DNA of 64,000 nucleotides from an uncultured Rhodospirillaceae bacterium (GTDB lineage Bacteria > Pseudomonadota > Alphaproteobacteria > UBA6615). Location: the NCBI GenBank assembly GCA_964530225.1, contig CAZHBA010000057.1, positions 553-64,552 on the forward strand, written 5' to 3'. Of the stretch, positions 8,890-51,593 are shown piece after piece. The notes beneath the pieces were generated by a model that was not told the DNA's origin, did no database searches, and saw nothing but the letters and a program-made list of their open reading frames with translations. Numbering within the stretch: the first letter of the stretch is position 1; the number at the start of each line of letters is the position of its first letter. A program made the translations under genes and the position numbers.

Positions 8890-9029
8890 GTTATGTACCG
8901 TTTTGTTCGCGCCAGCCTTGCCTCCCACGGGTGGCCCAACTATCTAAATACCAGCAAAATCAACATGGTCTCGTAAACCAACTCCGCTGGGCGGGTCCCG
9001 GCCGCCAGAAATTACTCAGGAACCCCAAC

Positions 9030-21678: not shown

Positions 21679-21694
21679 CCGCAAACAAATGAAT

Positions 21695-21730
21695 GGTCCG
21701 CCCCAAGAGGGCGGACCATTTCTTTTGTGT
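21695..21730 (+). terminator. Intrinsic terminator/attenuator between aapJ and aapQ.
   Basis: Hairpin ggtccgcccc-aaga-gggcggacc followed by TTTCTTTTGT. Confidence 0.7.
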
Positions 21731-24053: not shown

Positions 24054-24065
24054 GGCGAGGCCGAT

Positions 24066-24839
24066 ATGTCAATTGCAGAAACCACTTCAAGCGCCGGCAC
24101 CGGCGAACCAGTAATTGAGATCACCGGTCTAAATAAATGGTTCGGCCCGTTCCACGTGCTGCGCGATATCAACCTGAGCATCGCCCGGCGTGAACGCATC
24201 GTCATTTGCGGCCCCTCGGGCAGCGGTAAATCGACCCTAATCCGCTGCATCAACCGGCTGGAAGAACATCAAGAAGGGCAAATCGTCGTCGACGGCACCG
24301 TGCTGACAAATAACCTTAAGAATATCGACGCCATCCGCCGCGAAGTCGGCATGGTGTTCCAGTCGTTTAACCTGTTTCCTCACCTCACCGTGTTAGAGAA
24401 TTGCACCCTGGCACCGATCTGGGTGCGCAAGACACCAAAAACGGAGGCCGAGAAATTTGCCATGGAACTGCTCGAGCGGGTCAAGATTCCAGAGCAGGCG
24501 GACAAGTATCCCGGCCAGCTATCGGGTGGCCAGCAGCAGCGCGTGGCCATTGCCCGCTCGCTATGCATGCGGCCCAACATAATGCTGTTCGATGAGCCGA
24601 CCTCAGCGCTCGATCCGGAAATGATCAAGGAAGTGCTCGACACCATGGTCGATCTGGCGGAGACCGGCATGACCATGCTGGTAGTCACCCACGAGATGGG
24701 CTTCGCCTCGCAGGTCGCCGACCGGGTGATCTTCATGGACGAGGGGCAGATCGTCGAGCAAAACACGCCGGACGAGTTCTTCAACAACCCGCATTCCGAC
24801 CGCACCAAGCTGTTCCTCAGCCAGATTCTCAGCCACTAA
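24066..24839 (+). CDS. aapP: Amino-acid ABC transporter ATP-binding protein.
   Basis: Walker [10 protein letters not shown], the ABC signature LSGGQQQR and Walker B MLFDE. Confidence 0.9.
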
Positions 24840-34149: not shown

Positions 34150-34182
34150 GACATCAACTCCTCAGTGGCGATAGCAGCACTC

Positions 34183-34974
34183 TTAGCGCCCGACGAACTT
34201 CGGTTTTCTCTTCTCGACGAAGGATAGGAAGCCTTCCTTGGTGTCCGCCGTATTCTGAATGTCGGTCAAGACTTCCCAGGTCCAGGGGATACCCTTGGTT
34301 GGGCCGCGGTCGATGGCACCCATGATCGCGCGCTTGGTGCCCTGAACCGCTAGCGGCGCTGCGTCTTCGGCGATATGCGTGGCAATCTCCCACGCCTTAT
34401 CCAGCAATTTTTCTTGCGGTAAAACCTCCGATACCAGTCCCCACTGGTAGGCCTGCTGCGCGTTAATCCGAAAGTGCTTTCCCTCCAGCGACATGCGCAT
34501 GACGATGCCGAGCGGCATTTTGTAAGCCAGCCCCGCCGACTCGACGCCGTTGATCAGCCCGATATTGACGTGGGTATCGAAGAACTGGGCGTTTTCCGAG
34601 GCAATCACGATGTCGCTGTCGGCAACCAGGTGCCAGCCGCCACCGACGCAATAGCCGTTGACCGCACAGATGAACGGCTTTTCGATCGACTGCATCATAT
34701 CGGTCCAGGGCTTGAAGATGGTGTAGCCACCGGTCTCGCCGGTCTCGGCTGTCTTCTTTGCCGCTTCGGTGACGTACATGCCGCTGCAGAATGCCTTGTC
34801 GCCCGCGGCGGCGATAATCATCGCCCAAAGTTTGGGGTCGTTCTTATACTCGGTGAACACCTCCAGCATCTCGTTGCCAGTGTCGACGCTTATGGCGTTC
34901 ATTCTCTCCGGACGATTAAGGGTGAGACAGATAATTCGGCCCCTCTTCTCCACAACGATATCATCATAAGCCAT
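34183..34974 (-). CDS. Enoyl-CoA hydratase/isomerase (crotonase) family protein.
   Basis: Crotonase fold with N-terminus MAYDDIVVEKRGRIICLTLNRPERMNA. Confidence 0.85.
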   Translation of the reverse strand: MAYDDIVVEKRGRIICLTLNRPERMNAISVDTGNEMLEVFTEYKNDPKLWAMIIAAAGDKAFCSGMYVTEAAKKTAETGETGGYTIFKPWTDMMQSIEKPFICAVNGYCVGGGWHLVADSDIVIASENAQFFDTHVNIGLINGVESAGLAYKMPLGIVMRMSLEGKHFRINAQQAYQWGLVSEVLPQEKLLDKAWEIATHIAEDAAPLAVQGTKRAIMGAIDRGPTKGIPWTWEVLTDIQNTADTKEGFLSFVEKRKPKFVGR

Positions 34975-35038
34975 TTTTCTTTCCTCTTTGGTGTCAGGCC
35001 TAAATACGGGTGCGGATAGTACTCGCAGAGACGCTACG

Positions 35039-36181
35039 TTACTGCCGCATCAACGCGCGGCCAATGATCAACCGCTGGATTTCCGATGTGCCTTCGTAGA
35101 TGCGGGTAATTCTGGCATCACGATAGAACCGGCCAACGGGATTGCCGCTAATATAGCCGGCACCCCCCTGGAGTTGCATCGCGTTGTCGGCGACCACCGC
35201 CAGACACTCCGAGGCATAGAGCTTGGCCATCGAGACCGTTTCCGGCGTGGCCCCGCCGTTATCGCAATCGATGGCGGCCTTGTAGGTGAGCCAGCGAGCA
35301 GCCTCGGTGCACGTCGCCATGTCGGCCAGCATGAACCGTATGGCTTGGAAATCTCCGATCGGCTTGCCAAACTGCTTGCGGTCCCGCGCCCAATCAGTCG
35401 ATATTTCGAGTAGCCGCTCGCAGGCGCCAACGCAGCGGGCGGCGACCAGCGGGCGCGCATTGTTGAGAATTTGCATGGCCGCGATCCAGCCATCGCCTTC
35501 CGCGCCGAGCAGGTTTTCCTCCGGAACCTCGCAGTCCTCAAACACCAGCTCGGCGATGGGATGACCCTTCGCCCCCATGGTCTCGTAGATCTCGCCAATC
35601 CGGAATCCGGGGAAATCCGGCTCTACCAAGAAGACGCCGAACTGTTTGTCGGCCTCGCCGGAGTTGGTGCGCGCGATCACCGTGATAAGACCCGCCTTCG
35701 AGCCGCCACTAATGTAGCATTTCACACCGTTCAGGTAGTACCGGTTACCCTTCTTACGTGCGTTTGTCCTCATCCCCCCAACATCGGAACCGGCTTCGTG
35801 CTCGGTGATGGCACAGGCCGCCGTGAGCTCCCCGGTCGCCATCCGCGGCAGGTAGCGCTCCTTCTGGCTCTCCGTCCCCAGTTCGACGATACCCTCTGAG
35901 CCAATCCCGGTATGGGACGCGATCGCGCCGGCAAAACCGAAACCGCTGCGTCCGATCATCTGATGAACGAGCGTGCGAGAAAGCCGGCTAAGACCGCTGC
36001 CGCCATAGGCTTCCGGAATGCTCATCCCGAAAAGACCGAGGGCTCCCGCCTCTGATAGGATTTCCGGCGGAATGGCATTGGTTTCCTCAATCTCATTTAT
36101 CCGTGGCTCGACGCGCTCGTCGATGAACGATCGTACCGATTCCATAAGGTCTTTCTGTTCTGTAGAGATTTGAAAATCCAT
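35039..36181 (-). CDS. Acyl-CoA dehydrogenase family protein.
   Basis: 380-aa ACAD fold. Confidence 0.85.
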   Translation of the reverse strand: MDFQISTEQKDLMESVRSFIDERVEPRINEIEETNAIPPEILSEAGALGLFGMSIPEAYGGSGLSRLSRTLVHQMIGRSGFGFAGAIASHTGIGSEGIVELGTESQKERYLPRMATGELTAACAITEHEAGSDVGGMRTNARKKGNRYYLNGVKCYISGGSKAGLITVIARTNSGEADKQFGVFLVEPDFPGFRIGEIYETMGAKGHPIAELVFEDCEVPEENLLGAEGDGWIAAMQILNNARPLVAARCVGACERLLEISTDWARDRKQFGKPIGDFQAIRFMLADMATCTEAARWLTYKAAIDCDNGGATPETVSMAKLYASECLAVVADNAMQLQGGAGYISGNPVGRFYRDARITRIYEGTSEIQRLIIGRALMRQ

Positions 36182-36184
36182 GGG

Positions 36185-37366
36185 TCACACGCCTTCAGCG
36201 ATTGAACAGCCGAGCTCCTGCATTATTTCTTCCCTGTGCTCGTCCAATCCGGGCACACTCAACAGACCCTTGGTACCCGATCCTTGGATCTTGATCGGCA
36301 CCCCCCATGTCGGCACCTCGCGGCCGCCGGCAAGCCGTGCCGTCTGGATCATGTCGCGCGCCACGACCTGTTCATCGCTGATGACGTCGCCCATCGGGCG
36401 CACGTGACTTAACGGAACGCCTGCGTCGAGGCAGAGGCTTTGCCATTCCTTGGCGTCGCGTGTTGCAAGATAGTCCTGCAGCAGCGGCCGCAAATCGTCG
36501 CGATTTGCGACGCGGTCCGGATTGGACGCAAACCTGGGGTCGTCGGCCAGATGGTCCGCCCCCAGAACGTCGCAAAACCGCTGCCACTGGAATTCGTTGC
36601 AGACCTGAACTAGGCAATCTTCCCCGTCGCGGCAAACGAAGGCGCCCATCGGGTACATACCCATAGTTTCGCTGCCCTGTCGTGCCGGTACGGGCAGGTC
36701 CGCCAGCGCGCCCTGGAGATAGGCGTGCATGAACCCGAGTGCGGACTCCATTAGGGAGACTTCGAGCAGAACGCCTTGCCCGGTTTTCGCGGCAGTATAA
36801 ACACCCGATACGATGGCGCTGAAGGCAAGATAGGCTGTCGCGATATCGATCGACGAGCCGCCGCTACGTACCGGCCCGCCGTCACGCTCTCCCGTAACGC
36901 CCATAATTCCGGTGTAGGCCTGCATCATGGAATCGTAGGCGGGCGCAGCGGCGCGCGGGCCTTTGCGGCCATATCCGGTCACGGAAACCCAGACGAGTTT
37001 GGGATGTGTGGTTTTGAGATCGTTCCAGTCGAGCCCCATTTTCGTCAGCGACCCGGGGCGATAGTTTTCGACGACGACGTCGGCCGTCGACAGCAGCTTT
37101 AAAAAGATGTCCTTGTCGCCCGGCGATTTCAAATCGAGCGATATGCTTCGTTTGCCGCGATTGCAGCTGACGAAGTAGACGCTTTCGCCATCGATGAAGG
37201 GCGGCCAGCAGCGCATTTCGTCGCCACCCGGTTGCTCGATCTTGATGACATCCGCACCCATCTCAGCAGCCAGCATCGTCGACACCGGTCCGGCGATATT
37301 CCGGGTGAGGTCGACGATCCTGATGCCGTCGAGAAGGGGAGGAATTGGTTGCGGCGATGCCGTCAT
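36185..37366 (-). CDS. CoA-transferase family III (CaiB/BaiF-like).
   Basis: N-terminus LDGIRIVDLTRNIAGPVSTMLAAEMGADVIKIE is diagnostic of the family. Confidence 0.85.
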   Translation of the reverse strand: MTASPQPIPPLLDGIRIVDLTRNIAGPVSTMLAAEMGADVIKIEQPGGDEMRCWPPFIDGESVYFVSCNRGKRSISLDLKSPGDKDIFLKLLSTADVVVENYRPGSLTKMGLDWNDLKTTHPKLVWVSVTGYGRKGPRAAAPAYDSMMQAYTGIMGVTGERDGGPVRSGGSSIDIATAYLAFSAIVSGVYTAAKTGQGVLLEVSLMESALGFMHAYLQGALADLPVPARQGSETMGMYPMGAFVCRDGEDCLVQVCNEFQWQRFCDVLGADHLADDPRFASNPDRVANRDDLRPLLQDYLATRDAKEWQSLCLDAGVPLSHVRPMGDVISDEQVVARDMIQTARLAGGREVPTWGVPIKIQGSGTKGLLSVPGLDEHREEIMQELGCSIAEGV

Positions 37367-37679: not shown

Positions 37680-37754
37680 TGGTGGGCGCGGTAGGGTTTG
37701 AACCTACGACCCCCTCGATGTCACCGAAGTGCTCTTCCGCTGAGCTACGCGCCC
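37680..37754 (-). tRNA. tRNA-Val (anticodon GAC), with the CCA encoded.
   Basis: The reverse complement GGGCGCGTAGCTCAGCGGAAGAGCACTTCGGTGACATCGAGGGGGTCGTAGGTTCAAACCCTACCGCGCCCACCA folds as a cloverleaf with a 7-bp acceptor stem, a TTCAAAC T-loop and an anticodon loop GTGACAT. Confidence 0.85.
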
Positions 37755-37805: not shown

Positions 37806-38047
37806 TCTTACAACGCCCTTGGTTTGAGAGCAAGTCTGCGCCATAGCGCAGCGAGGCTAGCGGATGCCAGGAACCGACAGAGAGGATGTGGTCGACATTG
37901 TCGACCAGTTCGCGCAGATGAAACGGATTCGACAGAATCTTGGTCGCGCCCATTTTCTCGCGCGCGTTCATGGCCACTGCTCTCCAGCGCCCGCGCCAGA
38001 AACTCCCGCACTGATGTATCGTTCTCAGCTAGCAGAATGCGCGTCAT
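37806..38047 (-). pseudogene. Response-regulator receiver-domain remnant with an internal deletion and frameshift.
   Basis: The N-terminus MTRILLAENDTSVREFLARALESSGH (receiver beta1-alpha1) joins directly, in another frame, to AMNAREKMGATKILSNPFHLRELVDNVDHIL (receiver alpha4-beta5 'GADDYLTKPF' region). The ~60 aa carrying the phospho-acceptor Asp are missing. The reading frame then runs into tRNA-Val. Confidence 0.5.
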
Positions 38048-38285: not shown

Positions 38286-39170
38286 ATGGATCAGGAAACC
38301 CGCATCGATGCAGATCAAGCGATCGAGATTCTGGCACCGGCGAGACAAACGGCGCCGGTGGTTTTTTCGTCTCCCCATAGCGGACGTCAATATTCGGAAG
38401 ATTTCCTGGCCACGACATGCCTCGACGAGCAGGCGATCCGGCGATCGGAAGACAGTTTCGTCGACGAAATTTTTGCCCGGGCACCCCTTTATGGCGCCCA
38501 ACTGCTGAAAGCCCTGTTTCCGCGTGCTTTCGTCGACCCCAATCGCGAGCCCTACGAGCTCGATCCAACGATGTTCGAGGAGCCGCTACCCGGCTTCATC
38601 AACAAGCGCTCACCACGGGTCGCCGCGGGTCTAGGAACGATCGCGCGGGTCGTCGCGAGCGGCGCCGAAATTTACACCGGCAAATTGAACTTCACCGAAG
38701 CCCGCGAACGAATCGACCGCTATTACCGTCCTTATCACGAGGCGCTGGAAGACCTCGTTGGAACCACCCAGCGCATTTTTAATCACTGTATCCTGATCGA
38801 TTGCCATTCCATGCCATCGGTCGGCGGACCGATGGAAAACGATGCCGGCCGCCAGCGGCAGGTGGATTTCGTGCTTGGCGACGCCCACGGGCGCAGCTGT
38901 TCACGCGCGCTCACCGTAATGGTCGAGGAAACCTTGCGCGGCATGGGCTACACCGTGGTGCGCAATGCGCCCTATTCGGGCGGTTTCATCACCCGCAACT
39001 ACGGCCGCCCGGCCAAGGGTGTGCACGCCCTGCAAATCGAGATCAATCGCGGACTCTACATGCACGAGCCCAGCTATAGCCGCGCGCCCGAAATGGCGAG
39101 GATTGTCGAGGACATGTCCCGGTTAACCGAACGCTTCCTGGGCCTCGAGCCGCAGGCGCTCGCCGCATAA
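38286..39170 (+). CDS. N-formylglutamate amidohydrolase-family protein.
   Basis: The SSPHSGRQY motif and ~290 aa length fit the FGase family. Confidence 0.7.
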   Translation: MDQETRIDADQAIEILAPARQTAPVVFSSPHSGRQYSEDFLATTCLDEQAIRRSEDSFVDEIFARAPLYGAQLLKALFPRAFVDPNREPYELDPTMFEEPLPGFINKRSPRVAAGLGTIARVVASGAEIYTGKLNFTEARERIDRYYRPYHEALEDLVGTTQRIFNHCILIDCHSMPSVGGPMENDAGRQRQVDFVLGDAHGRSCSRALTVMVEETLRGMGYTVVRNAPYSGGFITRNYGRPAKGVHALQIEINRGLYMHEPSYSRAPEMARIVEDMSRLTERFLGLEPQALAA

Positions 39171-39193: not shown

Positions 39194-39727
39194 TTGCCCG
39201 GCGACAACGTATCAATCCGCGATGCAACCGAAGGCGACCCAGCGTGGATTCAAGCGATCTACGCTCATTATGTGAACCACGGGCTGGCGTCGTTCGGAGA
39301 AATGCCACCCAATATCGCCAAAATTTCTCGTCGGCGCGATACGGCATGTGACCACGATCTGTCCTATCTGGTGGCCGAAAAGGACGGCACGGTGCAAGGT
39401 TTTGCCTATGCCAGTCTGTTCCGTGGCCGACCGGCGTATCGCTACACGATTGAGGATTCGGTCTATATTGCACCCGACGCGCTGGGCGCCAGTGTCGGAT
39501 CAGCCCCGTTGTCGACCCCGATCGAGCAATGTGCAGAGCGCGGTTTCCGGCAGATGATAGTGGTGATCGGCGATAGCGCCAACCAAGCCTCGATCGGTTT
39601 GCATGCCAAGCACGGTTTCGTCAAAGCAGGTTTGACGCCGTCTGTCGGCTTTAAGTTCAGCCACTGGGTCGACAGCTTCAGCACGCAACAGCCCCTGGGC
39701 CTGGGCGATACTACCCCGCCCGAGTAG
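39194..39727 (+). CDS. GNAT-family N-acetyltransferase.
   Basis: Acetyl-CoA-binding motif region (VVIGDSANQASIGLHAKHGF); 177 aa. Confidence 0.7.
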   Translation: MPGDNVSIRDATEGDPAWIQAIYAHYVNHGLASFGEMPPNIAKISRRRDTACDHDLSYLVAEKDGTVQGFAYASLFRGRPAYRYTIEDSVYIAPDALGASVGSAPLSTPIEQCAERGFRQMIVVIGDSANQASIGLHAKHGFVKAGLTPSVGFKFSHWVDSFSTQQPLGLGDTTPPE

Positions 39728-39803
39728 GGCTCGTTCCATTTGGCTGGAGTTAGCCGGCGTAATGCACATTAGGGCCAACAGGTCGCGGTAACGCCTAAAA
39801 AGC

Positions 39804-39832
39804 AAAAAAAGGCCGTGGTTGAAACCACGGCC
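39804..39832 (-). terminator. Intrinsic terminator for a minus-strand transcript.
   Basis: A-run followed by ggccgtggtt-gaaa-ccacggcc on the plus strand, which reads as hairpin plus U-tract on the minus strand. It lies ~600 nt downstream of the epimerase-like gene ending at 40428. Confidence 0.5.
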
Positions 39833-40427
39833 CAAGTAAAGGGGAGGAAACGCTAAATATGCGGTTCCAGCGCAAGGCGGATACCGCAACACAACAGATA
39901 CTTCGCACTTGCAGCATTTTCAAGGCCTCGTATAACTTTCTGAAAATAAGCATTAGTTGGTTATATCCGTGGCCATAAGCGAAATATTATTACGAAGTGA
40001 TATTGCGTTGCACAATATTCGATAGTCTGTTGGTTTAGATAGCCGAAACCGCGCCATCTAGCATAGGATTTGCTCCCTTTTACCCATGCGTAGAATCTCA
40101 CATTATGGGCTCTGACCGCGCTGACGCTGGCGATTTATCTATCGGTATCGGCCGCTAACGCGATAACACCTCTGCCTTTCGCAAAATTCCGCCGAATTTG
40201 CCAACGTGCAACGCGGGATGCCGAAGCCAGCAGCACCCTGCCCAAGGACCTGTTGACCGCAATTTCGCTGGCAAGAACCGTGTTGATCTGGCCTGTCGGG
40301 CCGGGATTATCGGACGCGGTTGCCACCAATAGTGGGCTCTTTCAATCTGAAAACGACCCAAGCTACAACATGCGCGAGGGGCCCTAAGCCACCAAATCGT
40401 CCGTGGGCGGTCAAATGGCAGGCGCTA

Positions 40428-41408
40428 TTAGCCCCATAAAGTGGCGGATGGCGGGGAAACAAGGCTTTCGCGCACTTCCAGAGGAAATTCCCGGTCTATA
40501 GACAGTAGCAAAGGGCCGTCCAAATCGACGATTTTGGCACCTTGAGCCACTAGGTGAGCCGGCGCCATCGCCAGACTGGTGCCCACCATACACCCCACCA
40601 TAATGTCGAGATTCGCCGCCCGCGCCGCCGCCGCAACTGCCAAAGCCTCGGTAAGTCCACCGGCCTTGTCGAGCTTGATATTGACCATGTCGTAGCGGTC
40701 GGCCAACGCGGCTACGCTAGTACTGTCGTGGCATGATTCGTCGGCACAAATCGGCACCGGATGGTCGAGGGTAACCAAGGCAGCATCGTCGCCAGCCGGA
40801 AAAGGTTGTTCGATCATCTCCACGCCGAGGCCCGCCAGTTCCACTGCCAACGCACCAAAGTCTTCCGGCGCCCAAGCCTCGTTAGCGTCAACGATGAGCC
40901 GGGCATCCGGCGCACCCTCGCGCACGGCGCACACCCGGTCGAGGTCACCGGCGCCGGTCAGTTTCAATTTAAGCAAAGGCCGCGTCGCGTTTTCACGGGC
41001 CACCACGGCCATTGCCTCCGGCGTGCCGACGCTCAGCGTGTAGGCAGTCTCGACCAGCCCGGGTTTCGTAAGTCTTGCCAAGGCCCACACCGGCTTACCG
41101 GTTTGCTTGGCTTGCAAATCCCAAAATGCGCAGTCGATGGCGTTACGTGCCGCGCCCGGCGGCATCACCGTTTGCAGGCTCTCGCGGTCGAGCCCTCCGG
41201 AAATGTCTGTCGCCATCACGGCAATCGCATCGGCAACTCCTTCCGGCGTTTCGCCGTAGCGGATATTGGGTCCGCATTCACCACGGCCTTTATGGTCGCC
41301 GTCATTAAGTTCGGCTACGACCACTACGGTCTCGGTCTTGCTGCCGCGCGAGATCGTGAAATGCTGGCGCAGCGGAAAGGTTTCGACCCGCGCTTCGAGG
41401 GTCACCAT
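40428..41408 (-). CDS. Enolase-superfamily dipeptide/N-acyl-amino-acid epimerase (mandelate racemase / muconate-lactonizing-enzyme family); DgcA-like.
   Basis: MR_MLE N- and C-terminal domains; the ...ISRGS... N-terminus is typical of L-Ala-D/L-Glu epimerases. It lies immediately downstream of a DUF1611 gene. Confidence 0.7.
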   Translation of the reverse strand: MVTLEARVETFPLRQHFTISRGSKTETVVVVAELNDGDHKGRGECGPNIRYGETPEGVADAIAVMATDISGGLDRESLQTVMPPGAARNAIDCAFWDLQAKQTGKPVWALARLTKPGLVETAYTLSVGTPEAMAVVARENATRPLLKLKLTGAGDLDRVCAVREGAPDARLIVDANEAWAPEDFGALAVELAGLGVEMIEQPFPAGDDAALVTLDHPVPICADESCHDSTSVAALADRYDMVNIKLDKAGGLTEALAVAAAARAANLDIMVGCMVGTSLAMAPAHLVAQGAKIVDLDGPLLLSIDREFPLEVRESLVSPPSATLWG

Positions 41409-41418
41409 GGCGGAGCCG

Positions 41419-42420
41419 TTAATCCAGTTTCGCGACGAGCGCGGCGACGCCGTCGATCACCGGGTCAACCGCAGGCAAGCCCGTCCGCGCTGCTATATTG
41501 GCCAGGCAACTCCGGCGCTCATCTTCACTGGCCAGGCCCGAGGTATTCACCGCAACGCCGATACATACCGCGTCGGGATTGGTTAGCCGCGCGGCGCCGA
41601 TATGCCCGTCTATGCAGGTCTGGATGTCAGGCAGCGGTTGATGGGGTAATCCGCGCATGTGTGTGCGTGTCGGCTCGTGGCAAACCACCAGCACGTCCGG
41701 CTGCGCGCCATGCACCAGCCCCATGGTGACGCCGGCATATGAGGGATGAAACAACGAGCCCTGGCCCTCGACCAGATCCCAGTGATCGGCGTCGCTGGCC
41801 GGTGTCAGCCATTCGGTGGCACCAGAGATAAAATCCGATACTACCGCGTCCACCGATACGCCTTCACCGGCAATGAAAATTCCGGTCTGGCCAGTGGCGC
41901 GAAAATCGGCCTTCACATTGCGCAACTGCAATTCGTGACCGATAGCCAACGCGGCATACATTTTACCGACCGAACAATCGGTGCCAACGGTGAGTAGACG
42001 CTTGCCCGAGCGTCGCGCACCGGAACCGACGCTGAACGTCTGCGTCGGGTGGCGCACATCGAACAATTGGCGGTTATTGGCTACCACAGCATCGGCGACG
42101 GTCTCGATATCGGCGACCTTCTGATGCAGCCCGGCAGCAATATCCATGCCAGCCTCCAGCGCATCCACCATCGTCGGCACCCAGGATTCGGGGATCACAC
42201 CGCCACGATTGGCCACCCCAATTACCATCGTGCGGCACCCGACGGCAACGGCCTCGGCAATGGTCATATCCGGCAGACTCAGATCGGCGCGACAGCCCGG
42301 TAACCGAAACTGTCCGAGGCACCAATCACGCCGCCAATGGACGATCCCGCTCGCAGTTTTTGCCGCCAGTTGGTCCGGCGCATCACCGAGAAACATCAGA
42401 TAGGGGTATTCTATTTTCAT
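41419..42420 (-). CDS. DUF1611-family protein (DgcN-like putative N-acetyltransferase).
   Basis: 333 aa with a Walker-A-like segment GTDCSVGKM in the C-terminal half and a CoA-binding-like N-terminal half, as described for DUF1611. Paired with the enolase-superfamily epimerase 10 nt downstream. Confidence 0.55.
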   Translation of the reverse strand: MKIEYPYLMFLGDAPDQLAAKTASGIVHWRRDWCLGQFRLPGCRADLSLPDMTIAEAVAVGCRTMVIGVANRGGVIPESWVPTMVDALEAGMDIAAGLHQKVADIETVADAVVANNRQLFDVRHPTQTFSVGSGARRSGKRLLTVGTDCSVGKMYAALAIGHELQLRNVKADFRATGQTGIFIAGEGVSVDAVVSDFISGATEWLTPASDADHWDLVEGQGSLFHPSYAGVTMGLVHGAQPDVLVVCHEPTRTHMRGLPHQPLPDIQTCIDGHIGAARLTNPDAVCIGVAVNTSGLASEDERRSCLANIAARTGLPAVDPVIDGVAALVAKLD

Positions 42421-42495
42421 CGGTCTCCCGTTGCCGCAAGCCCTGTACGGAGGCTAAGTTCGCTCCAGCAATCCGGCCCCCTCGAAAGGCAAGTT

Positions 42496-44307
42496 ATGTT
42501 TACCACACGACCCGAAATTCGTGGCACATTTGGGATGGTCGCGTCGACCCACTATCTGGCCACCATGGCTGGCTGGGCAATGCTGGAAAAAGGCGGCAAC
42601 GCCTTCGATGCCGCCGTCGCCACCGGGTTGGCGCTACAGATCGTCCATCCCTACCAGAACGGCCCCGGCGGCGATCTTCCCATCGTTTTACACAACGCAA
42701 CGACTGGCAAGACCGAAGCTATCTGCGGCCAGGGCGTGTCACCGCAGGCGGCGACTCTCGAGCGGTTCCAACAAATGGGTCTCGATCTCATTCCCGGCAC
42801 CGGATTGCTGGCACCGTGTGTGCCGGGCGCCTTCGGCGCCTGGATGGTGCTGCTGCGCGATTACGGCACCCTGAGCCTGAGCGACGTTATGCAACCCGCC
42901 ATCGATTATGCTCGCGACGGCTATGCCGTGATGCCGATGATGCGCACGATAATCGACAATGTCGCCGAACTGTTCCGTAGCGCCTGGCACACGTCCGCGG
43001 CAACGTATCTGATCAACGGTGAGCCGCCAGAAGTGGGTACACTGCACAGCAATCCGGTCTTAGCCGAAACCTACGCACGCCTATTGCGCGAGGCCGAAGC
43101 CCAGGACGGTAGCCGCGAGAACGTGGTCGAGGCTGGGCGGCGTGTGTTCTACGAGGGTTTTATCGCCGAGGAAATAGACCGCTTCTGCCGCAAAACCGAA
43201 TGGCTCGACAGCTCCGGCGAGGTGCACGGCGGCTTGTTGACCGGCGACGATATGGTGCATTGGCGGCCCACCATCGAGGCGCCGGCGACCTACGACTATC
43301 ACGGCTATACCTTGTGCAAACCCGGTCCGTGGAGCCAGGGCCCGGTGTTCCTGCAGCAATTGGCTCTGCTCAAGGGTTTCGACTTGGCGGCGATGGACCC
43401 GGTAGGGCCGGACTTCATTCACACCCAAGTGGAATGCGCCAAGCTGGCGCTCGCCGACCGGGAAGCCTGGTACGGTGATCCCGACGTGCACGACATTCCG
43501 CTGCAAAGCTTGTTATCGGAAAACTACAACGATGCGCGGCGCGGCCTGATCGAGACCCAAGCGTCCACTGAGTTACGCCCCGGCAGCCCCGACGGCCGCG
43601 ACCCCCATCTCGCCGAATTCGCAACACTCGATCCTGATCAAGACGAAGTTTTACCAGCCGGAGCCGGCGAACCCAATACGGCACGCAGCGTGGCCAACGA
43701 CCATGGGCCTGCCAACGGCGATACGGTGCATCTCGACGCCACCGACCGGTTTGGCAACATGATCACCTGCATGCCGAGCGGCGGCTGGTTACAATCGTCG
43801 CCGGTGATACCGGCGCTGGGGTTCTGTCTGGGCACGCGCGCGCAGATGTTTTGGCTGCAGGAAGGCTTCCCGACGACGCTACAACCGGGTATCCGTCCGC
43901 GAACCACCCTGAGCCCGACGCTAGCACTGCACGACGGCTCACCGGCATTGGCGTTCGGCACGCCCGGCGGTGACGCTCAGGACCAGTGGGGATTAACCCT
44001 ATTCCTGCGCCACATCCATCACGGCATGGACCTGCAAGAAGCCATCGACGCGCCCAACTTCCATACCGATCACCTACCATCGAGCTTCTATCCGCGCACT
44101 TTCCAGCCCGCTGTGGTCAAGGCCGAAGGCCGGCTGCCGCAGGAAACTATCGACGTCTTGCGAAACCGGGGCCATCGTATGGAAATCGTCGACGACTGGG
44201 CGCTCGGCCGCTTGTGCGCGGTCGGTCGCGAGAAAACCGATGGTGGCTGGCTTCTCAAGGCCGCTGCCCATCCGCGCTTTCAAGAGGCCTACGCCGTTGG
44301 CCGTTAG
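42496..44307 (+). CDS. ggt: Gamma-glutamyltransferase family protein.
   Basis: GGT fold; 603 aa from MFTTRPEIRG. A Thr nucleophile region is present. The track ORF start (42337) is an upstream over-extension. Confidence 0.85.
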   Translation: MFTTRPEIRGTFGMVASTHYLATMAGWAMLEKGGNAFDAAVATGLALQIVHPYQNGPGGDLPIVLHNATTGKTEAICGQGVSPQAATLERFQQMGLDLIPGTGLLAPCVPGAFGAWMVLLRDYGTLSLSDVMQPAIDYARDGYAVMPMMRTIIDNVAELFRSAWHTSAATYLINGEPPEVGTLHSNPVLAETYARLLREAEAQDGSRENVVEAGRRVFYEGFIAEEIDRFCRKTEWLDSSGEVHGGLLTGDDMVHWRPTIEAPATYDYHGYTLCKPGPWSQGPVFLQQLALLKGFDLAAMDPVGPDFIHTQVECAKLALADREAWYGDPDVHDIPLQSLLSENYNDARRGLIETQASTELRPGSPDGRDPHLAEFATLDPDQDEVLPAGAGEPNTARSVANDHGPANGDTVHLDATDRFGNMITCMPSGGWLQSSPVIPALGFCLGTRAQMFWLQEGFPTTLQPGIRPRTTLSPTLALHDGSPALAFGTPGGDAQDQWGLTLFLRHIHHGMDLQEAIDAPNFHTDHLPSSFYPRTFQPAVVKAEGRLPQETIDVLRNRGHRMEIVDDWALGRLCAVGREKTDGGWLLKAAAHPRFQEAYAVGR

Positions 44308-44325
44308 CGGTCCCCCGTTGCCAGC

Positions 44326-45687
44326 ATGACCACGACCACAAACAACGCCATCGGCTTGACCGACGGCCTGCGCAACGGCCCCTACCGCCGCATCTGGAAA
44401 CTGTCGTGGCCGACCATCCTATCGAACCTCACAGTGCCGCTGCTCGGCGCCGTCGACACCGCGGTAATGGGGCATTTGCCCGACGCCGCCTATGTGGGTG
44501 CGGTGGCGGTGGGGGCGATGGTTTTCAGCTTCGTCTATTGGGGCTTCGGTTTCCTCAACATGGGTACCGTTGGCTTCGCCGCCCAAGCGAAAGGCAGCGA
44601 CGACACCGACGAGATTAGGGCTGTTCTCGCCCGCGCATTGTTAGTCGGCCTGGGGCTCGCTGCTGTTATTCTTGTACTACAATTTCCAGTGCGGCTGGGC
44701 GCGCTGACGATTATCGATGCGGAACCACAGGTAGAACAATTAGCGAGCGCTTATTTCGACGTTCGTGTGTGGGGAGCACCGGCGACTCTGGCCAATTACG
44801 GGCTACTGGGTTGGCTGTTGGGCATGCAGTATGTGCGCACGGCCCTCATCGTTCAGGTTCTCATCAACGGTCTGAACGTCGTCCTCGATCTATGGTTCGT
44901 CCTCGATCTCGGTTGGGGCGTCGAGGGAGTAGCTCTGGCGACGGCGATTGCCCAATACGCTGGCGCGTTTCTGGGATTGTTCTTCGTGCTGCGTCACCTC
45001 AAGGTCATCGGCGGGCGTTGGCAGTGTGCAAAAATTCTCGAACCGGTAGCGTTGGCCGAGACCTTTCGGGTAAACCGCGACATTTTTTTGCGCACGCTGG
45101 CGATGATCTTCGCCTGGTCGTTACTCACCTGGACCGGTGCGCGATTGGGCACGACGGCATTAGCGGCAAATGCTATTTTGATGAACTTCCAACTGTTTCT
45201 GGCCCACGGGCTGGACGGTTTCGCCCATGCCACTTCGGCATTGGTCGGCGAAGCGGTCGGCGCCCGCGACCATCGGATGCTGCGCCGCTGCGTTGTCGCC
45301 ACCACTGTCATGGCAATCGTTGTGGCAACCGGCTATACGCTGGTCTATGCCAGTGCCGGCCCGGCGATTATCAGGACGTTCACCACCATCGCTGAGCTAC
45401 GCACGTTCTCGTCCAACTATTTGATCTGGATCGTCATCTCGCCGTTGCTGTCAGTATGGGCCTATCAACTCGACGGCATATTTATCGGCGCTACGCGGTC
45501 CGCCGACATGCGCAACGCCATGGTGATATCAGTGGCGATCTACGTCACAGCAATGGCGACGTTGACCGGGACCTTGGGTAATCACGGCCTGTGGCTATCG
45601 GTGATGATCTTCATGGTCGCGCGGGCGCTGACGCTGGCGGTGCATTACCCCAATATCGAGAAAATGGCTGCCGCTAACACTAACTAA
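44326..45687 (+). CDS. MATE-family efflux transporter.
   Basis: 12-TM protein with a MatE-repeat N-terminus (WPTILSNLTVPLLGAVDTAVMGHL). Confidence 0.85.
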   Translation: MTTTTNNAIGLTDGLRNGPYRRIWKLSWPTILSNLTVPLLGAVDTAVMGHLPDAAYVGAVAVGAMVFSFVYWGFGFLNMGTVGFAAQAKGSDDTDEIRAVLARALLVGLGLAAVILVLQFPVRLGALTIIDAEPQVEQLASAYFDVRVWGAPATLANYGLLGWLLGMQYVRTALIVQVLINGLNVVLDLWFVLDLGWGVEGVALATAIAQYAGAFLGLFFVLRHLKVIGGRWQCAKILEPVALAETFRVNRDIFLRTLAMIFAWSLLTWTGARLGTTALAANAILMNFQLFLAHGLDGFAHATSALVGEAVGARDHRMLRRCVVATTVMAIVVATGYTLVYASAGPAIIRTFTTIAELRTFSSNYLIWIVISPLLSVWAYQLDGIFIGATRSADMRNAMVISVAIYVTAMATLTGTLGNHGLWLSVMIFMVARALTLAVHYPNIEKMAAANTN

Positions 45688-45828: not shown

Positions 45829-47214
45829 ATGGGCCGAGAGTCCAAGTTCGGTTGGCCGTTAAAACCCCGCGCGATGGCAATCGTCGGTGGTTTGGCAATC
45901 GCCGTTCCAGTGTTTGCGTTCGTTGGTGGTTTCTTCGCCGGGCAAAACGCCGCTGGGCCGCCGGGTGAAGTCGACAACCAAGTCGATACACTCACCCACG
46001 TCCAGTCCACCGCCATATGGGAAGCCGAGGCGGACCATCAGCCGCCGGTGCCCATTACCCGCGTCGTCGCGGTCGAAAGCGGCGATAACCTCGTGGGAGT
46101 TTTGTTGCGCGCCGGCGTCGAACGAACCGTGGCTTATGCAGCGATCCAGTCGCTCAAGAGAAGTTACGACCCCAGGCGCGACTTGAGCGTCGGCGACAAG
46201 TTGCAGGTGACTTTCGGTCTCGTCAACACCAGCGAAACTTCGAACGAGCCCGAAGGTTATGTTCTTTCGCGTCTGACCATTCCCGTCTCCTACGACAGGG
46301 AAATCGATGTCAGCCGCGACAACAAAGGTAGGTTCGTCGCCAGCGAGGTCGAACGCCCTCTCGAACGCGAAACCGTGCAGGTGTCGGGCAAAATAGACAC
46401 AAGCCTATCCGTGGCCGCCGGCGCAATCGGCCTGCCGCCACACGTGCTGGCCGAGTTCATCCGCGTCTACAGCTTCGATGTCGATTTCCAACGGGATATC
46501 TGGCAGGGCGACCACTTCGAGCTGATGTATGATCAGTTTCGCGATAAAACCGGCGAAATCGTCCACGAAAGCGACATCCACTACGCCAAATTGACCCTAC
46601 GTAGCACCGAGCTGCCGTTGTACCGTTACACGACGACGAGGGGAAATTTGGATTACTTCACCGCCAAAGGCCAGAGCGTGCGTAAGACGCTTATGCGCAC
46701 ACCGATCGACGGGGCGCGACTATCGTCGCGCTTTGGTCGACGCCAGCATCCGATACTCGGTTACACGCGCATGCACACCGGCACCGATTTCGCCGCGCCG
46801 CGCGGCACACCGATTTACGCCGCCGGCAACGGCACCGTCGTCCAGGTGGGCCGCAACGGCGGCTACGGTAAGTATGTCCGCATCCGCCACAATGGAACCT
46901 TCCAGACCGCTTATGCGCATCTGTCGGGGTACGCTAGAAAGACCCGCAGAGGTGTGCGCGTGAAGCAGGGCCAGATTATTGGCTATGTCGGGTCCACGGG
47001 GCGGTCGACCGGTCCCCACCTGCATTACGAAGTTCTGCGCAATGGCCGCCAGATTAATCCCCGCAGCGTCCGCATTCCCAGCGGCGAGAAGCTAAAAGGC
47101 GCCGAATTGAAGAAATTCATTGCCCTGCGTGATACCAGGGATACGCAGTTCGCGCGGTTGCGTGACGCCGCGGTGCGGCTTGCCGAAAACAAGGCCGGCG
47201 CAATCCAAAAATAA
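45829..47214 (+). CDS. M23-family metallopeptidase.
   Basis: Zn-binding HxxxD (HTGTDFAA) and HxH (HLHYEV) motifs in the C-terminal LytM domain. Confidence 0.8.
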   Translation: MGRESKFGWPLKPRAMAIVGGLAIAVPVFAFVGGFFAGQNAAGPPGEVDNQVDTLTHVQSTAIWEAEADHQPPVPITRVVAVESGDNLVGVLLRAGVERTVAYAAIQSLKRSYDPRRDLSVGDKLQVTFGLVNTSETSNEPEGYVLSRLTIPVSYDREIDVSRDNKGRFVASEVERPLERETVQVSGKIDTSLSVAAGAIGLPPHVLAEFIRVYSFDVDFQRDIWQGDHFELMYDQFRDKTGEIVHESDIHYAKLTLRSTELPLYRYTTTRGNLDYFTAKGQSVRKTLMRTPIDGARLSSRFGRRQHPILGYTRMHTGTDFAAPRGTPIYAAGNGTVVQVGRNGGYGKYVRIRHNGTFQTAYAHLSGYARKTRRGVRVKQGQIIGYVGSTGRSTGPHLHYEVLRNGRQINPRSVRIPSGEKLKGAELKKFIALRDTRDTQFARLRDAAVRLAENKAGAIQK

Positions 47215-47936: not shown

Positions 47937-48683
47937 CTTAGCTCCCGACGGAGAACGAACCGGACTTCTGCTGTTCCTTGAGTTCTTCGACGAACTCTTC
48001 GGCTGGACCATAGCCAGCCTGGTAGGCCTCGTTGATCCAATAGAGGCCTTCATCTTCGTCTTCTTCAGAGTTGATACCGAACAGCCGTATCATGCCCAGA
48101 GCGAACTGCGAGGGCTCATAGCCCCTTTCGGTAGCATCTGCATAAAGCTCGATCGCTTTCTGATTTTCAGCTTGCTCGATATCGTCGGGCCCTCTTCTGT
48201 ATTGAAAAGCAGTTGGGCTACACGGTACATGGAGCGTGGTTCTCCCGCCTCAGCAGCCTTTAGGAACCAAGTGAGGCCCTCAAAGAGGTCTTGTTCTACT
48301 CCATCGCCCGAGAACAGCATCTCACCGAGGTTGTACTGGGCACTCGCGACATCCTGCTCTGCTGCGTATCGGTATTCCGTAAGCGCTCGCTCTATATCGA
48401 CTTCGTAGCCCCGCTCACCGGAATGGTACCCGGTGGCAACGAAGAAGCTTGCCTCAGGGTTCCCTAGTGACGCAGAGGCCCGGCAGATAAAATTGCCTTT
48501 CTCATTGCAGGCCGTCTCGCCCTTGGCGTAGACCAACAGGGTCAGACCACCGAAGATTAGAGCAATGCGGAAGACGGCCGTTAGCGCCGAGTAGGCGACC
48601 AAGTTATAGAGCGTTCTCACCAGCACCTCCTTGGCGACTCTATGAGGCCCGTAGACGCGCTTTGGGGCCTCGGTGGCCCCCAT
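47937..48683 (-). pseudogene. Sel1-repeat (TPR-like) protein interrupted by a frameshift near 48165-48175.
   Basis: Sel1 motifs (AQYNLGEMLFSGDGVEQD...KAAEAG) in the 48090-48683 frame continue in a second frame as AENQKAIELYADATERGYEPSQFALGMIRLFGINSEEDEDEGLYWINEAYQAGY, ending at a TAA at 47937-47939. Confidence 0.5.
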
Positions 48684-48992: not shown

Positions 48993-51593
48993 TTATTCAG
49001 CGGCTTTGGCGTGGAACGTCTCGCCATTAATCACCAGGCCATCGACTACGGCGCTCACATTGACCGTATTGCCTTCATTGATGCGACCTTCGAGCAATAG
49101 GCTGGCCAGCTGATTCTGCAGGCCGCGCTGGATCACGCGTTTGAGCGGCCGGGCACCATAAACCAAGTCGTAGCCGGCATCCGCAAGCCACTCGCGCGCG
49201 GCGGTATCAAGTTTCAGCGTCACCTTTCGCTCCGCCAGCAGTTCGCACAGCCGCGCCAGTTGGATATCGACAATGCCGCCCATCTGCGCCCGGTTGAGGC
49301 GGTGGAACAGCAAGGTCTCGTCTAGCCGGTTCAGAAACTCCGGCCGGAATGCACTGCGCACGACTGCCATCACTTGATCGCGAACCGCCTCACTGTCCTC
49401 GCCTTCCGGCTGATTGGCGAAAAATTCGCTACCTAGGTTCGAGGTCATGATAATCAGCGTGTTTTTGAAATCAACCGTTCGGCCGTGACCGTCAGTCAAC
49501 CTGCCGTCATCGAGGACCTGCAAAAGAATATTGAAGGCATCGGGATGTGCTTTCTCGACCTCGTCGAACAGAACAACCTGGTAAGGACGGCGGCGCACCA
49601 CCTCGGTGAGGGCGCCACCCTCCTCATAGCCCACATAGCCCGGCGGGGCGCCAATGAGCCGGGCGACGGCGTGCTTTTCCATATACTCAGACATGTCGAT
49701 GCGCACCATCGCCTGCTCATCATCGAACAGGAATTCGGCCAGCGTCTTGGACAGCTCGGTCTTGCCAACACCGGTGGGGCCGAGGAACAGGAACGAGCCA
49801 ATCGGCCGATCCGGGTCTTGCAAACCGGCCCGCGCCCGGCGCACGGCGTTCGATATGGCGACAATCGCCTCTTCCTGGCCGATGACGCGGGCACCGAGCC
49901 CCGCTTCCATTTGGAGTAACTTTTCGCGCTCGCCCTCAAGCATCTTGTCGACCGGAATGCCTGTCCAGCGCGACACAATAGCGGCGATGTCGTTTTCCTT
50001 GACCTCTTCATCAAGCATGCGCTCGCTGGAAGCCTCTTCGGATTCGCCAAGGCTGCTTTCGAGTTCGGGAATTACGCTGTAGGCGAGCTGTCCAGCCCGT
50101 TCGAGTTGCCCTTCGCGCTGGGCGATTTCCAACTCCTGGCGCGCTTTATCTAGCTCCTCCTTGAGCTTTTGCGCGCCCGCGAGCTTTTCGCGCTCGGCCT
50201 GCCACACCGCGGTCAGATCGGCGGACTTGCCTTCAAGCCCGCTCAGCTCCCGCTCTAGGACCTCCAGCCTGTCCTTAGAGGCGGCATCAGATTCCTTTTT
50301 CAAAGCTTCGCGTTCGATTTTCAGTTGGATGATGCGGCGGTCGAGCTCGTCGACCTCCTCGGGCTTTGAATCGACTTCCATGCGCAAGCGTGAGGCGGCC
50401 TCGTCGACCAGATCGATAGCTTTGTCGGGCAAAAAGCGGTCGGAGATATAGCGGTTCGACATGGTTGCCGCCGCAACCAGCGCGCTGTCGGTAATACGCA
50501 CACCGTGGTGCAGCTCGTATTTTTCCTTCAGCCCGCGCAGGATCGAGACAGTGTCCTCGACCGAGGGTTCGGAGACAAACAATGGCTGGAATCGCCGCGC
50601 CAACGCGGCATCTTTTTCCACATGCTTGCGGTATTCGTCGAGTGTCGTGGCGCCGACACAGTGTAATTCACCGCGTGCCAGCGCCGGTTTCAGCATGTTC
50701 GAGGCATCCATCGAACCCTCCGCCGCACCGACGCCAACGATCGTGTGCATCTCGTCGATGAACAGAACGACTTCGCCTACGGCAGTGTCGATTTCCTCCA
50801 GGACCGCTTTCAGGCGCTCCTCGAATTCGCCGCGAAACTTGGCACCGGCGATAAGCGCGCCCATATCGAGGGACAAAAGACGCTTGTCGCGCAGGCTCTC
50901 CGGCACGTCGCCATTAACAATACGCAGGGCCAAGCCTTCGATGATCGCCGTCTTGCCAACGCCGGGTTCACCGATGAGGACCGGGTTATTCTTGGTACGC
51001 CGCGACAGCACCTGCACGGTACGGCGTATCTCTTCGTCGCGGCCGATTACCGGATCCAACCGGCCTTCGCGGGCCGCTTCCGTCAGGTCGAGGGTATATT
51101 TTTTCAACGCTTCGTAGGCATTTTCTGCCGTCGGTGAATCGGCCGTGCGGCCTTGACGCAACGCCTCGATCGCTCGGTTCAAATTCTGCGGTGTGGCACC
51201 AGCGCCAGCGAGGATTTTCGCCACCCCGCTGCCCGATGTCATCGCCAGAGCAAGCAGCATACGCTCGACGGTGACAAATTCATCACCGGCCTTTTTGGCG
51301 ATATCCTGCGCGCTCTTCAGATTTTTTGCTGCTTCCGACGCGATATAGACACCGCTGGCACCCTCGCCTTCGACCTTTGGCAACTTGTCGAGTGCGGTAT
51401 CGACTGCTGCCTCCGCGGCAACAGGATCTCCACCCGAGTTACGAATGAGGTTGGCGCACAGTCCTTCCTCGTCGTCGAGCAGGACTTTCAGAAGATGTTC
51501 GCTGGTCAGTTGCTGGTGGGACCGCCCGTCAGCCATATCGTGGGCTGCTTGGACAAAGCCCCGGGCGCGCTCGGTAAACGCTTCGAAGTTCAT
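48993..51593 (-). CDS. clpB: ATP-dependent chaperone ClpB.
   Basis: 866 aa with two AAA+ modules (Walker A GEPGVGKT and GPTGVGKT), a middle coiled-coil and a Clp_N domain. Confidence 0.95.

Follow-up and report, generated by a model that had tools for sequence, protein, structure and literature searches.

A 64,000-nucleotide stretch of DNA from an uncultured Rhodospirillaceae bacterium, referred to here as the window, carries on its minus strand a DUF1611-family gene followed by a gene of the enolase superfamily, with a GGT-like gene and a MATE transporter gene reading away from them. The question raised by this locus was whether the two minus-strand genes encode the DgcN-DgcA route of D-glutamate catabolism, and whether the divergent genes belong to the same system. 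D-Glutamate from peptidoglycan represents a sizeable marine organic nitrogen pool, and DgcN-DgcA is one of the microbial routes for reclaiming it. The positions of the features are listed in Table 1.

Table 1. Features of the dgcN-dgcA locus in the window
Feature	Position	Strand	Basis or remark
dgcN, predicted DUF1611-family D-glutamate N-acetyltransferase, 333 aa	41419..42420	-	Pfam, NCBIfam and similarity to 7XRJ
GTDCSVGK, P-loop/Walker-A-like segment of DgcN (aa 146-153)	41962..41985	-	identical in 7XRJ
dgcN-dgcA spacer, 10 nt, CGGCTCCGCC	41409..41418	-	between dgcN stop TAA and dgcA start ATG
dgcA, predicted N-acetyl-D-glutamate racemase (enolase superfamily, MLE subgroup), 326 aa	40428..41408	-	Pfam, NCBIfam, residues and tree
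dgcN/GGT-like divergent intergenic region, 75 nt	42421..42495	.	bounded by the corrected GGT start; presumed promoter region
Cytoplasmic GGT-family Ntn-hydrolase, 603 aa, candidate nucleophile Thr410	42496..44307	+	PF01019, 364 bits
MATE-family transporter, DinF-like, 453 aa	44326..45687	+	PF01554; TIGR00797, 255 bits
FGase-family (N-formylglutamate-amidohydrolase) gene	38286..39170	+	1.26 kb downstream of the dgcA end

Identity and conservation of the minus-strand pair

The product of the first gene matched both DUF1611_N (PF17396, 80.5 bits, aa 41-125) and DUF1611_C (PF07755, 234 bits, aa 132-329), an architecture combining a Rossmann-like and a P-loop-like domain. It scored 526.4 bits against the NCBIfam equivalog NF041892 (cutoff 480), covering all positions 1-326 of the 326-position profile. 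The DUF1611 assignment and the Walker-A-like GTDCSVGK segment, both proposed in a preliminary description made from the sequence, were confirmed. The protein aligned over its full length with PDB 7XRJ (E = 1.8e-116, 55.2% identity over 326 aa). The GapMind 2026 preprint cites this entry as the D-glutamate acetyltransferase whose structure Yu et al. 2023 solved experimentally. The pattern DCSVGKMY taken from DgcN was conserved enough for scanning and recovered 573 relatives.

The second protein contained MR_MLE_N and MR_MLE_C domains and scored 478.9 bits against the DgcA equivalog NF042940 (cutoff 400; profile positions 2-323 of 323). The residues K147/K149, D174, E200, D223, K245, R21 and D295xD297 were all present, and they were invariant in the 77 dgcN-linked sequences compared. 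The N-succinyl/N-acyl-amino-acid racemases of the OSBS/NSAR type (PDB 1SJA, 1R0M) share with this family the 1,1-proton transfer of the enolase superfamily on an N-acylated amino acid. They were, however, distant from the window protein, with 40-58 bits as compared to 280-324 bits for YcjG and the structure 4GFI. By these scores the predicted DgcA is a dipeptide-epimerase-like protein and not an NSAR.

The same pairing was found well outside the window. Of 80 loci drawn from different species of Alpha- and Gammaproteobacteria, 76 had a dgcA gene directly 3' of dgcN, on the same strand and about 1 kb downstream, a frequency far beyond chance. A class IV D-amino-acid transaminase gene followed dgcA in 26 of the 80 loci, confirming the D-amino-acid context of the pair; the window has no such gene downstream. 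RefSeq names the homologues 'N-acetyltransferase DgcN' and 'N-acetyl-D-Glu racemase DgcA'. The two equivalog matches, the similarity to 7XRJ, the conserved synteny and the RefSeq naming together indicated that the pair was already known. They also gave strong support to the earlier observation of a DgcN/DgcA-like pair in which the enolase-superfamily gene follows 10 nt after the DUF1611 gene.

We therefore consider, with a probability of roughly 0.85, that the two minus-strand genes are a dgcN-dgcA operon encoding the irreversible pathway already known for the racemisation of D-glutamate; the short spacer lies between genes that would be transcribed together. The gene order, the domain architectures and the GTDCSVGK segment are the same as in the described DgcN-DgcA pathway (Yu et al. 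2023, ISME J 17:537). By homology to that characterised system, DgcN (DUF1611 fold) would N-acetylate D-glutamate using acetyl-CoA. DgcA (enolase superfamily) would then invert the alpha-carbon of N-acetyl-D-glutamate by an Mg2+-assisted two-base proton transfer, in which the KxK lysine (147/149) would act from one face and K245 from the opposite face. The metal would be held by D174, E200 and D223, and the glutamate side-chain carboxylate by R21. The product, N-acetyl-L-glutamate, may be deacetylated to L-glutamate or enter arginine biosynthesis. The literature gives the EC numbers of the two enzymes (2.3.1.312 for DgcN and 5.1.1.25 for DgcA) and describes marine isolates that use the pathway (PMC11747546, PMC10845958, PMC12363236).

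The window pair is an unremarkable example of a dgcN-dgcA system that had been described before. As public annotation pipelines already name these genes, the addition of one more uncultured alphaproteobacterial carrier changes little. The window pair differs from the model system in its surroundings, as it stands head to head with a gene for a cytoplasmic GGT-like protein and has no adjacent transcriptional regulator. The model organism reportedly has an adjacent positive regulator, DgcR. The window pair was instead flanked by the GGT-like gene and by a non-coding segment containing a candidate sRNA, and the only regulator-like sequence near it, at a distance of 2.4 kb, was a degraded remnant resembling cpdR. 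No transcription factor was found among the annotated conserved neighbour clusters of the dgcNA loci, and no dedicated regulator, importer or deacetylase linked to dgcNA was found at the window locus.

The divergent GGT-like gene

The preliminary description had placed the pair divergent from ggt and a MATE transporter, and both genes were indeed found on the plus strand with the expected Pfam domains. The longest open reading frame of the GGT-like gene starts at 42337 and overlaps dgcN by 84 nt. Its alignment to PDB 6J3A begins at Met54, so the true start was assigned to the ATG at 42496. A simple sigma-70 consensus scan of the resulting intergenic region gave no match.

The closest homologue of the GGT-like protein was PDB 6J3A/6J3I ('gamma-glutamyltranspeptidase', 617 aa), with 620 bits to 6J3A over the full length. 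Both proteins start with MFTTRP, and the N-terminus MFTTRPEIRG of the window protein aligned to residue 1 of the 6J3A chain with no hydrophobic leader. As the alignment runs from Met1 of that chain, the protein has no leader peptide, which would place it in the same compartment as DgcN and DgcA. The Thr nucleophile region is conserved between the two proteins, and Thr410 (GDT|VHLD) aligned with residue 1 of solved GGT small chains, suggesting an intact nucleophile. The protein fell below both canonical GGT equivalog cutoffs (TIGR00066, 251.8 vs 357.85; PRK09615, 172.7 vs 990). By these scores and the absent leader peptide, it does not fit a canonical periplasmic gamma-glutamyltransferase.

These features raised the possibility that the GGT-like protein, DgcN and DgcA form one gamma-D-glutamyl module, in which the first enzyme would free D-glutamate from imported peptides, such as peptidoglycan stem fragments or poly-gamma-glutamate, and pass it to DgcN and DgcA. 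The genes lie head to head only 75 nt apart, the compartment would be shared and the Thr nucleophile is kept. The divergent arrangement also persists in loci L033 and L052, whose remaining neighbours are all different, and of the 80 GGT-subfamily loci, 15 had an oligopeptide/dipeptide ABC ATPase gene near the GGT gene. The wider distribution of the two genes argued against such a module. The GGT-like gene was divergent to dgcN only in the window and in L001-L006, L033 and L052, that is, in 9 of 81 dgcN loci (the window and 8 of the 80 fetched). In the DgcN tree these loci formed essentially one clade (window, L001-L006, L033) plus L052, indicating at most about two independent events. Viewed from the other gene, dgcN occurred in only 1 of the 80 metagenomic loci of the GGT subfamily, a close relative at 85% identity; when the count is restricted to the 48 loci in which 1.5 kb or more is available upstream, that single case is still the only one. 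Most dgcNA loci carried a D-amino-acid transaminase gene or unrelated genes as neighbours, and a literature search on 6J3A for the function or substrate of the subfamily returned nothing.

We consider the module rather unlikely for these reasons. The same grade applies to a more specific form of it, in which the leaderless Ntn-hydrolase would have been recruited beside dgcNA in this clade for a three-enzyme cytoplasmic salvage, for example from gamma-D-Glu-mDAP to D-glutamate and then to its inversion. If such recruitment were true, it would provide the first physiological substrate class for the widespread 6J3A-like GGT subfamily. What the loci establish is that one lineage sets a cytoplasmic GGT-like hydrolase gene head to head with dgcN. 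The gene is a lineage-specific neighbour with at most a putative functional tie to dgcNA. The earlier proposal of a locus devoted to gamma-glutamyl or D-glutamyl compound turnover is accordingly borne out only weakly: the head-to-head arrangement speaks for it, and the restriction to a clade, the single dgcN in the GGT-subfamily loci and the generic nature of the MATE transporter speak against it.

Closeness of DgcA to dipeptide epimerases

A different alternative concerned DgcA itself. The enzyme could really be, or could also act as, a YcjG-type L-Ala-D/L-Glu epimerase on murein-peptide fragments, with the DUF1611 partner using some related amino acid or peptide as its substrate in place of free D-glutamate. 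YcjG of E. coli (PDB 1JPD) and YkfB of B. subtilis (PDB 1JPM/1TKK) belong to the same MLE subgroup as the window protein, and their KxK, opposite lysine, D/E/D triad, arginine and DxD motif are identical to those of DgcA. In the YkfB and YcjG structures the arginine binds the glutamate side chain, and the DxD motif binds the N-terminal ammonium of the dipeptide. As R21 and D295-L-D297 are kept in all three proteins, they do not discriminate DgcA from YcjG. The window protein was 47% identical to E. coli YcjG, its median identity to the dgcN-linked proteins being 55%, and its score against the YcjG equivalog NF011708 (333.0 bits) fell just short of the cutoff of 343.

The features separating the two groups were few. 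Its score on the DgcA equivalog was 146 bits higher than on the YcjG model. Only 6 of 88 conserved columns differed between the dgcN-linked proteins and YcjG, and the window protein has all six dgcN-linked residues (P144, V162, L279, M281, A282 and P283); the last four correspond to R/I/S/A in YcjG. In a neighbour-joining tree rooted on YkfB, it grouped with the dgcN-linked proteins and E. coli YcjG fell outside in 68 of 100 bootstraps. The phylogeny, on which the preliminary description had left clustering with YcjG as the contrary outcome, therefore favoured the DgcA reading moderately. The genomic contexts differ as well: E. coli ycjG overlaps and pairs with mpaA (murein tripeptide amidase), whereas the partner in the window is the DUF1611 gene, and annotation of the window ORFs from 12 to 57 kb revealed no mpaA-like gene. 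A gene for a peptidoglycan M23 endopeptidase lies 3.4 kb away, which would suit a function in murein-peptide turnover, but its product scored far under the ShyC and MepM cutoffs and the gene is syntenic in the close clade only.

The closest solved structure to the window DgcA was PDB 4GFI, presumably from Agrobacterium tumefaciens (323.6 bits, 52% identity). It shares all six clade-specific residues, and 99 of 100 bootstraps nested it among the dgcN-linked proteins. It was deposited with bound Ala-Glu and classed as a dipeptide epimerase, not as an N-acetyl-glutamate racemase (PMC5368075). The separation of DgcA from YcjG is only shallow, and, with a clade member crystallised with Ala-Glu, the substrate cannot be fixed from sequence alone. 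The small number of residues between the two groups and the ligand in 4GFI bear on the substrate specificity of the whole clade. Weighing the equivalog scores, the six residues and the gene pairing, we regard a YcjG-type function of the window enzyme as unlikely; in a weaker variant, enzymes of the DgcA clade may be bifunctional, acting as both N-acetyl-glutamate racemase and Ala-Glu epimerase.

The MATE transporter and the FGase-family gene

The GGT-like hydrolase, MATE and M23 peptidase genes are syntenic neighbours of this alphaproteobacterial lineage and not conserved parts of the dgcN-dgcA system. The MATE gene begins 18 nt past the stop codon of the GGT-like gene, and its product scored 372 against the DinF model (cutoff 409). 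It is a generic DinF-like exporter whose link to dgcNA is at most putative. N-Acetylation of D-amino acids of the yeast Hpa3 type provides an analogue for a detoxifying role, in which DgcN would acetylate surplus D-glutamate and the MATE transporter would export the N-acetyl-D-amino acid. Of the 80 loci, 10 did have a MATE gene reading away from dgcN, and in L024, L025 and L030 it adjoined dgcN directly, with no GGT gene between. Such a role is nevertheless highly improbable, as dgcA was present in all the MATE-linked loci, making export unnecessary, the transporter was absent from the other 70, the MATE-linked loci clustered in the DgcN tree as expected of inherited synteny, and there is no evidence for a MATE substrate of the N-acetyl-D-amino-acid kind.

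The statement in the preliminary description that no deacetylase is obvious nearby had overlooked the FGase-family gene beyond dgcA. The FGase-family protein was considered as the missing deacetylase and rejected, since it scored 115.8 against the HutG model TIGR02017 (N-formylglutamate deformylase; cutoff 278.75). In all four genomes examined, its orthologues (61-85% identity) were located beside a gene for a cpdR-like regulator, and neither a DUF1611 nor an MR_MLE gene came closer than 10 kb. The gene is thus part of another conserved block, one that also occurs without dgcNA.

Identity of the DgcN and DgcA proteins

The preliminary description had matched a DUF1611 protein and the enolase-superfamily enzyme following it to the DgcN/DgcA pair, and profile analysis indicated that the pair was real and correctly identified, as both proteins passed the NCBIfam equivalog cutoffs. 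The DUF1611 assignment was confirmed by the Pfam domains DUF1611_N and DUF1611_C in the first protein, which aligned end to end with the DgcN equivalog at 526.4 bits against a cutoff of 480. The second protein contained MR_MLE_N and MR_MLE_C and scored 478.9 bits with the DgcA equivalog (cutoff 400). The TAA stop codon of dgcN is separated from the ATG start codon of dgcA by a 10-nt spacer (CGGCTCCGCC), and the GTDCSVGK segment corresponds to residues 146-153 of DgcN. The top PDB match of DgcN was 7XRJ (E = 1.8e-116, 55.2% identity over 326 aa), which was approximately 83% identical to the Rhodobacteraceae DgcN among the retrieved loci and is, according to the GapMind 2026 preprint, an experimentally determined structure of D-glutamate acetyltransferase (Yu et al. 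2023). In the pathway as outlined in three citing papers (PMC10845958, PMC12363236, PMC11747546), D-glutamate is N-acetylated (EC 2.3.1.312) and the N-acetyl-D-glutamate is racemised to N-acetyl-L-glutamate (EC 5.1.1.25).

Features of the window around the dgcN-dgcA pair
Feature	Positions	Strand	Remark
AapJQMP-like polar amino-acid ABC transporter	20560-24839	+	family-3 binding protein, two large permeases, ATPase
Acyl-CoA operon, four genes	32944-37366	-	two acyl-CoA dehydrogenases, enoyl-CoA hydratase, CaiB/family-III CoA-transferase
tRNA-Val(GAC)	37680-37754	-	
cpdR-like single-domain response regulator remnant	37870-38047	-	
FGase-family amidohydrolase	38286-39170	+	
ArsN1/PPT-like (phosphinothricin-acetyltransferase-like) GNAT	39194-39727	+	
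Candidate mmgR/suhB-family alphaproteobacterial sRNA	39796-39869	-	10-bp-stem terminator, 39833-39810
dgcA	40428-41408	-	
dgcN	41419-42420	-	
GGT-like gene	42496-44307	+	start corrected
DinF-like MATE transporter	44326-45687	+	
M23 endopeptidase-like gene	45829-47214	+	
ORF of 236 aa	47224-47934	-	
Sel1-repeat (ExoR-like) protein gene	48090-48683	-	
clpB	48993-51593	-	

The second-ranked NCBIfam model for DgcA was the E. coli-type L-Ala-D/L-Glu epimerase, with 333 bits just below the cutoff of 343. The window DgcA shared 47% identity with YcjG, the E. coli enzyme of this type, 52% with the Agrobacterium tumefaciens dipeptide epimerase 4GFI, and a median of 55% with the dgcN-linked proteins. 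In a neighbor-joining tree rooted with B. subtilis YkfB, another L-Ala-D/L-Glu epimerase, the window enzyme was placed in the dgcN-linked clade; YcjG fell outside the linked proteins in 68 of 100 bootstraps, and 4GFI fell inside them in 99. The full set of catalytic and ligand-binding residues, K147/K149, K245, D174, E200, D223, R21 and D295xD297, was invariant in the 77 linked sequences and identical in YcjG. Of 88 columns conserved in at least 90% of the linked proteins, YcjG differed at only six (P144, V162, L279, M281, A282 and P283 in the linked proteins), and all six linked residues were found in both the window DgcA and 4GFI; in YcjG, R/I/S/A stand in place of L279/M281/A282/P283. Membership of the window enzyme in the DgcA clade is clear, and it is unlikely to be exclusively a YcjG-type epimerase. 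As 4GFI was crystallised with alanine-glutamate and classed as a dipeptide epimerase (PMC5368075), and as few residues separate the two groups, on sequence evidence the DgcA clade may also act on L-Ala-D/L-Glu. This shallow boundary between DgcA and YcjG is the first of two points in which the locus retains value.

Conservation of the pair and its link to a transaminase

Scanning one genome per species gave 573 relatives of DgcN, and the best 80 loci were examined up to 10 kb on either side of the match. These derived from uncultured Alphaproteobacteria, Thalassospira, Sneathiella, Rhodobacterales, Vibrio, Psychromonas and others. In 76 of these best 80 loci, dgcA was the co-directional gene directly downstream of dgcN, and two of the four exceptions were on contigs too short to show dgcA. 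Homologues of DgcN in the protein database number in the thousands, many of them named 'N-acetyltransferase DgcN' by NCBI. The adjacency of dgcA, the abundance of homologues and the routine annotation show the window pair to be an ordinary member of a system that is already known.

Unbiased clustering of the neighbouring ORFs detected a gene for a class IV D-amino-acid transaminase directly 3' of dgcA, on the same strand, in 26 of the best 80 loci, which ties the pair independently to D-amino-acid metabolism. Transaminase-linked pairs occurred in L035, L038, L044, L045, L048, L054-L080 and others, with Vibrio, Psychromonas and Rhodobacterales among them; in the retrieved locus L083, the transaminase gene is at 8991-9848. 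The same order of dgcN, dgcA and D-amino-acid transaminase is annotated in RefSeq plasmid records. The transaminase following dgcA was absent from the lineage of the window.

Homologues of dgcN without an adjacent dgcA were found in L051, L061 (Nitratireductor) and L082, the S. meliloti plasmid pEmeLPU88b, where the lone dgcN lies beside genes for an aminotransferase and a Glu/Leu/Phe/Val dehydrogenase. Such homologues suggest that DUF1611 acetyltransferases are able to work in other contexts.

The FGase block and the deacetylase question

The preliminary description had stated that no deacetylase was obvious near the pair. This held in that no M20/ArgE-type deacetylase was present among the ORFs annotated at 12 to 57 kb of the window, but an FGase-family gene does lie 1.26 kb past the end of dgcA, convergent with it. 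The encoded protein scored 116 bits with the HutG model against a cutoff of 279, and was thus not HutG. The FGase gene together with its GNAT partner was considered as the missing N-acetyl-L-glutamate deacetylase and rejected as a specific partner on account of its tRNA flank, its variable distance from dgcA and its occurrence apart from the pair. Among the best 80 loci, FGase recurred within 10 kb of dgcNA in 14, separated from dgcA by a varying 2.7 to 9 kb that held unrelated genes, and tRNA-Val(GAC) flanked FGase in nine of the ten FGase-carrying loci scanned and in a further locus, L167. In four of four other genomes, FGase orthologues (61-85% identity) adjoined a CpdR-like response regulator of 117-120 aa, and neither a DUF1611 nor an enolase-superfamily gene was found within 10 kb. 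The 85%-identical orthologue is on a contig of 4,333,714 nt, and the 82%-identical DgcN match P0022 is on a contig of equal length; the two probably belong to one genome, with dgcNA at another place. The FGase-GNAT pair was concluded to be part of a conserved block of its own, which in the window simply lies next to dgcA. The block of tRNA-Val, cpdR, FGase, GNAT and mmgR, an sRNA of which a likeness was seen near FGase in the loci scanned, is conserved in Rhodospirillales-like Alphaproteobacteria independently of dgcNA, and the FGase-family protein is widespread.

N-acetyl-L-glutamate is the first intermediate of arginine biosynthesis. Since the product of the pair can feed this pathway, a dedicated deacetylase linked to the locus is not required.

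In the window, the response regulator of the block was represented by a remnant, in which the N-terminal 26 aa and about 33 C-terminal aa in another frame aligned to the intact regulators beside the FGase orthologues, while about 60 central codons, including the region of the phospho-acceptor Asp, were missing; the remnant represents a pseudogene or, alternatively, an artefact of the assembly. The 700-nt gap between GNAT and dgcA contained the candidate mmgR/suhB sRNA, which ended in a strong terminator and scored 38 bits with Rfam RF00519 (E = 6e-5) against a gathering threshold of 41. Homologues above the threshold were located near the FGase-GNAT block in L002 (61.6 bits), L001 (45.1 bits) and L167 (43.5 bits). 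The end of the acyl-CoA operon adjoins tRNA-Val, and similar genes were found near dgcNA at varying positions in L025, L029, L034 and L049.

The GGT-like gene and other neighbours

The gene pair had been described correctly; the start of the divergent GGT gene needed correction. The longest ORF, from 42337, would overlap dgcN by 84 nt, and its Met54 aligned with residue 1 of 6J3A, the closest solved homologue (620 bits), indicating that the gene starts at the ATG at 42496 and specifies a leaderless protein of 603 aa. The corrected start left an intergenic region of 75 nt, in which a sigma-70 consensus scan detected no promoter, the overall matches being at the level of shuffled sequence. The GGT-like protein, an Ntn-hydrolase that retains the nucleophile Thr410, missed both canonical GGT equivalogs and, having no signal peptide, is cytoplasmic.

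From this neighbour and the MATE gene, the locus had been read as one for turnover of gamma-glutamyl or D-glutamyl compounds. Apart from the window, the GGT-like gene was divergent to dgcN only in L001-L006, the closest relatives, and in L033 and L052 among the best 80 of the 573 loci. In the DgcN tree, L033 was placed beside the window clade and L052 elsewhere, pointing to at most about two independent origins of the adjacency. In a reciprocal set of 80 metagenomic loci with the GGT subfamily (55-85% identity), 48 of which had at least 1.5 kb upstream, where dgcN would be, dgcN was found in only one, the 85%-identical locus. Unbiased clustering of the neighbours in these loci gave no consistent partner; they were heterogeneous, the commonest being adenylate cyclase (17 loci), AurF-like (16) and Opp-type ATPase (15). 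A literature search on 6J3A yielded nothing relevant to assigning the subfamily. The restricted adjacency, the single reciprocal case and the mixed neighbours make the gamma-glutamyl reading an unlikely possibility specific to this lineage rather than a property of the system; this extension is weakly supported. The second point of remaining value is the association, particular to this lineage, of dgcN with a gene for a cytoplasmic GGT-like protein. The MATE gene, which accompanied dgcN in 10 of the best 80 loci, these loci being clustered in the DgcN tree, was rejected as a part of the system because patchy synteny was its sole support and no mechanistic link was found.

The AapJQMP-like transporter, preceded by genes for a trypsin-like peptidase and a 2OG-Fe(II) oxygenase, is 16 kb from dgcNA, and its import of (D-)glutamate is pure conjecture. 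The 236-aa ORF, with a low GC3 (0.52) and no match in Pfam or NCBIfam, is possibly not a real gene; the Sel1-repeat gene adjoins it. The M23 gene was syntenic only in L001-L006, and clpB in four of these loci (L001 and L003-L005).
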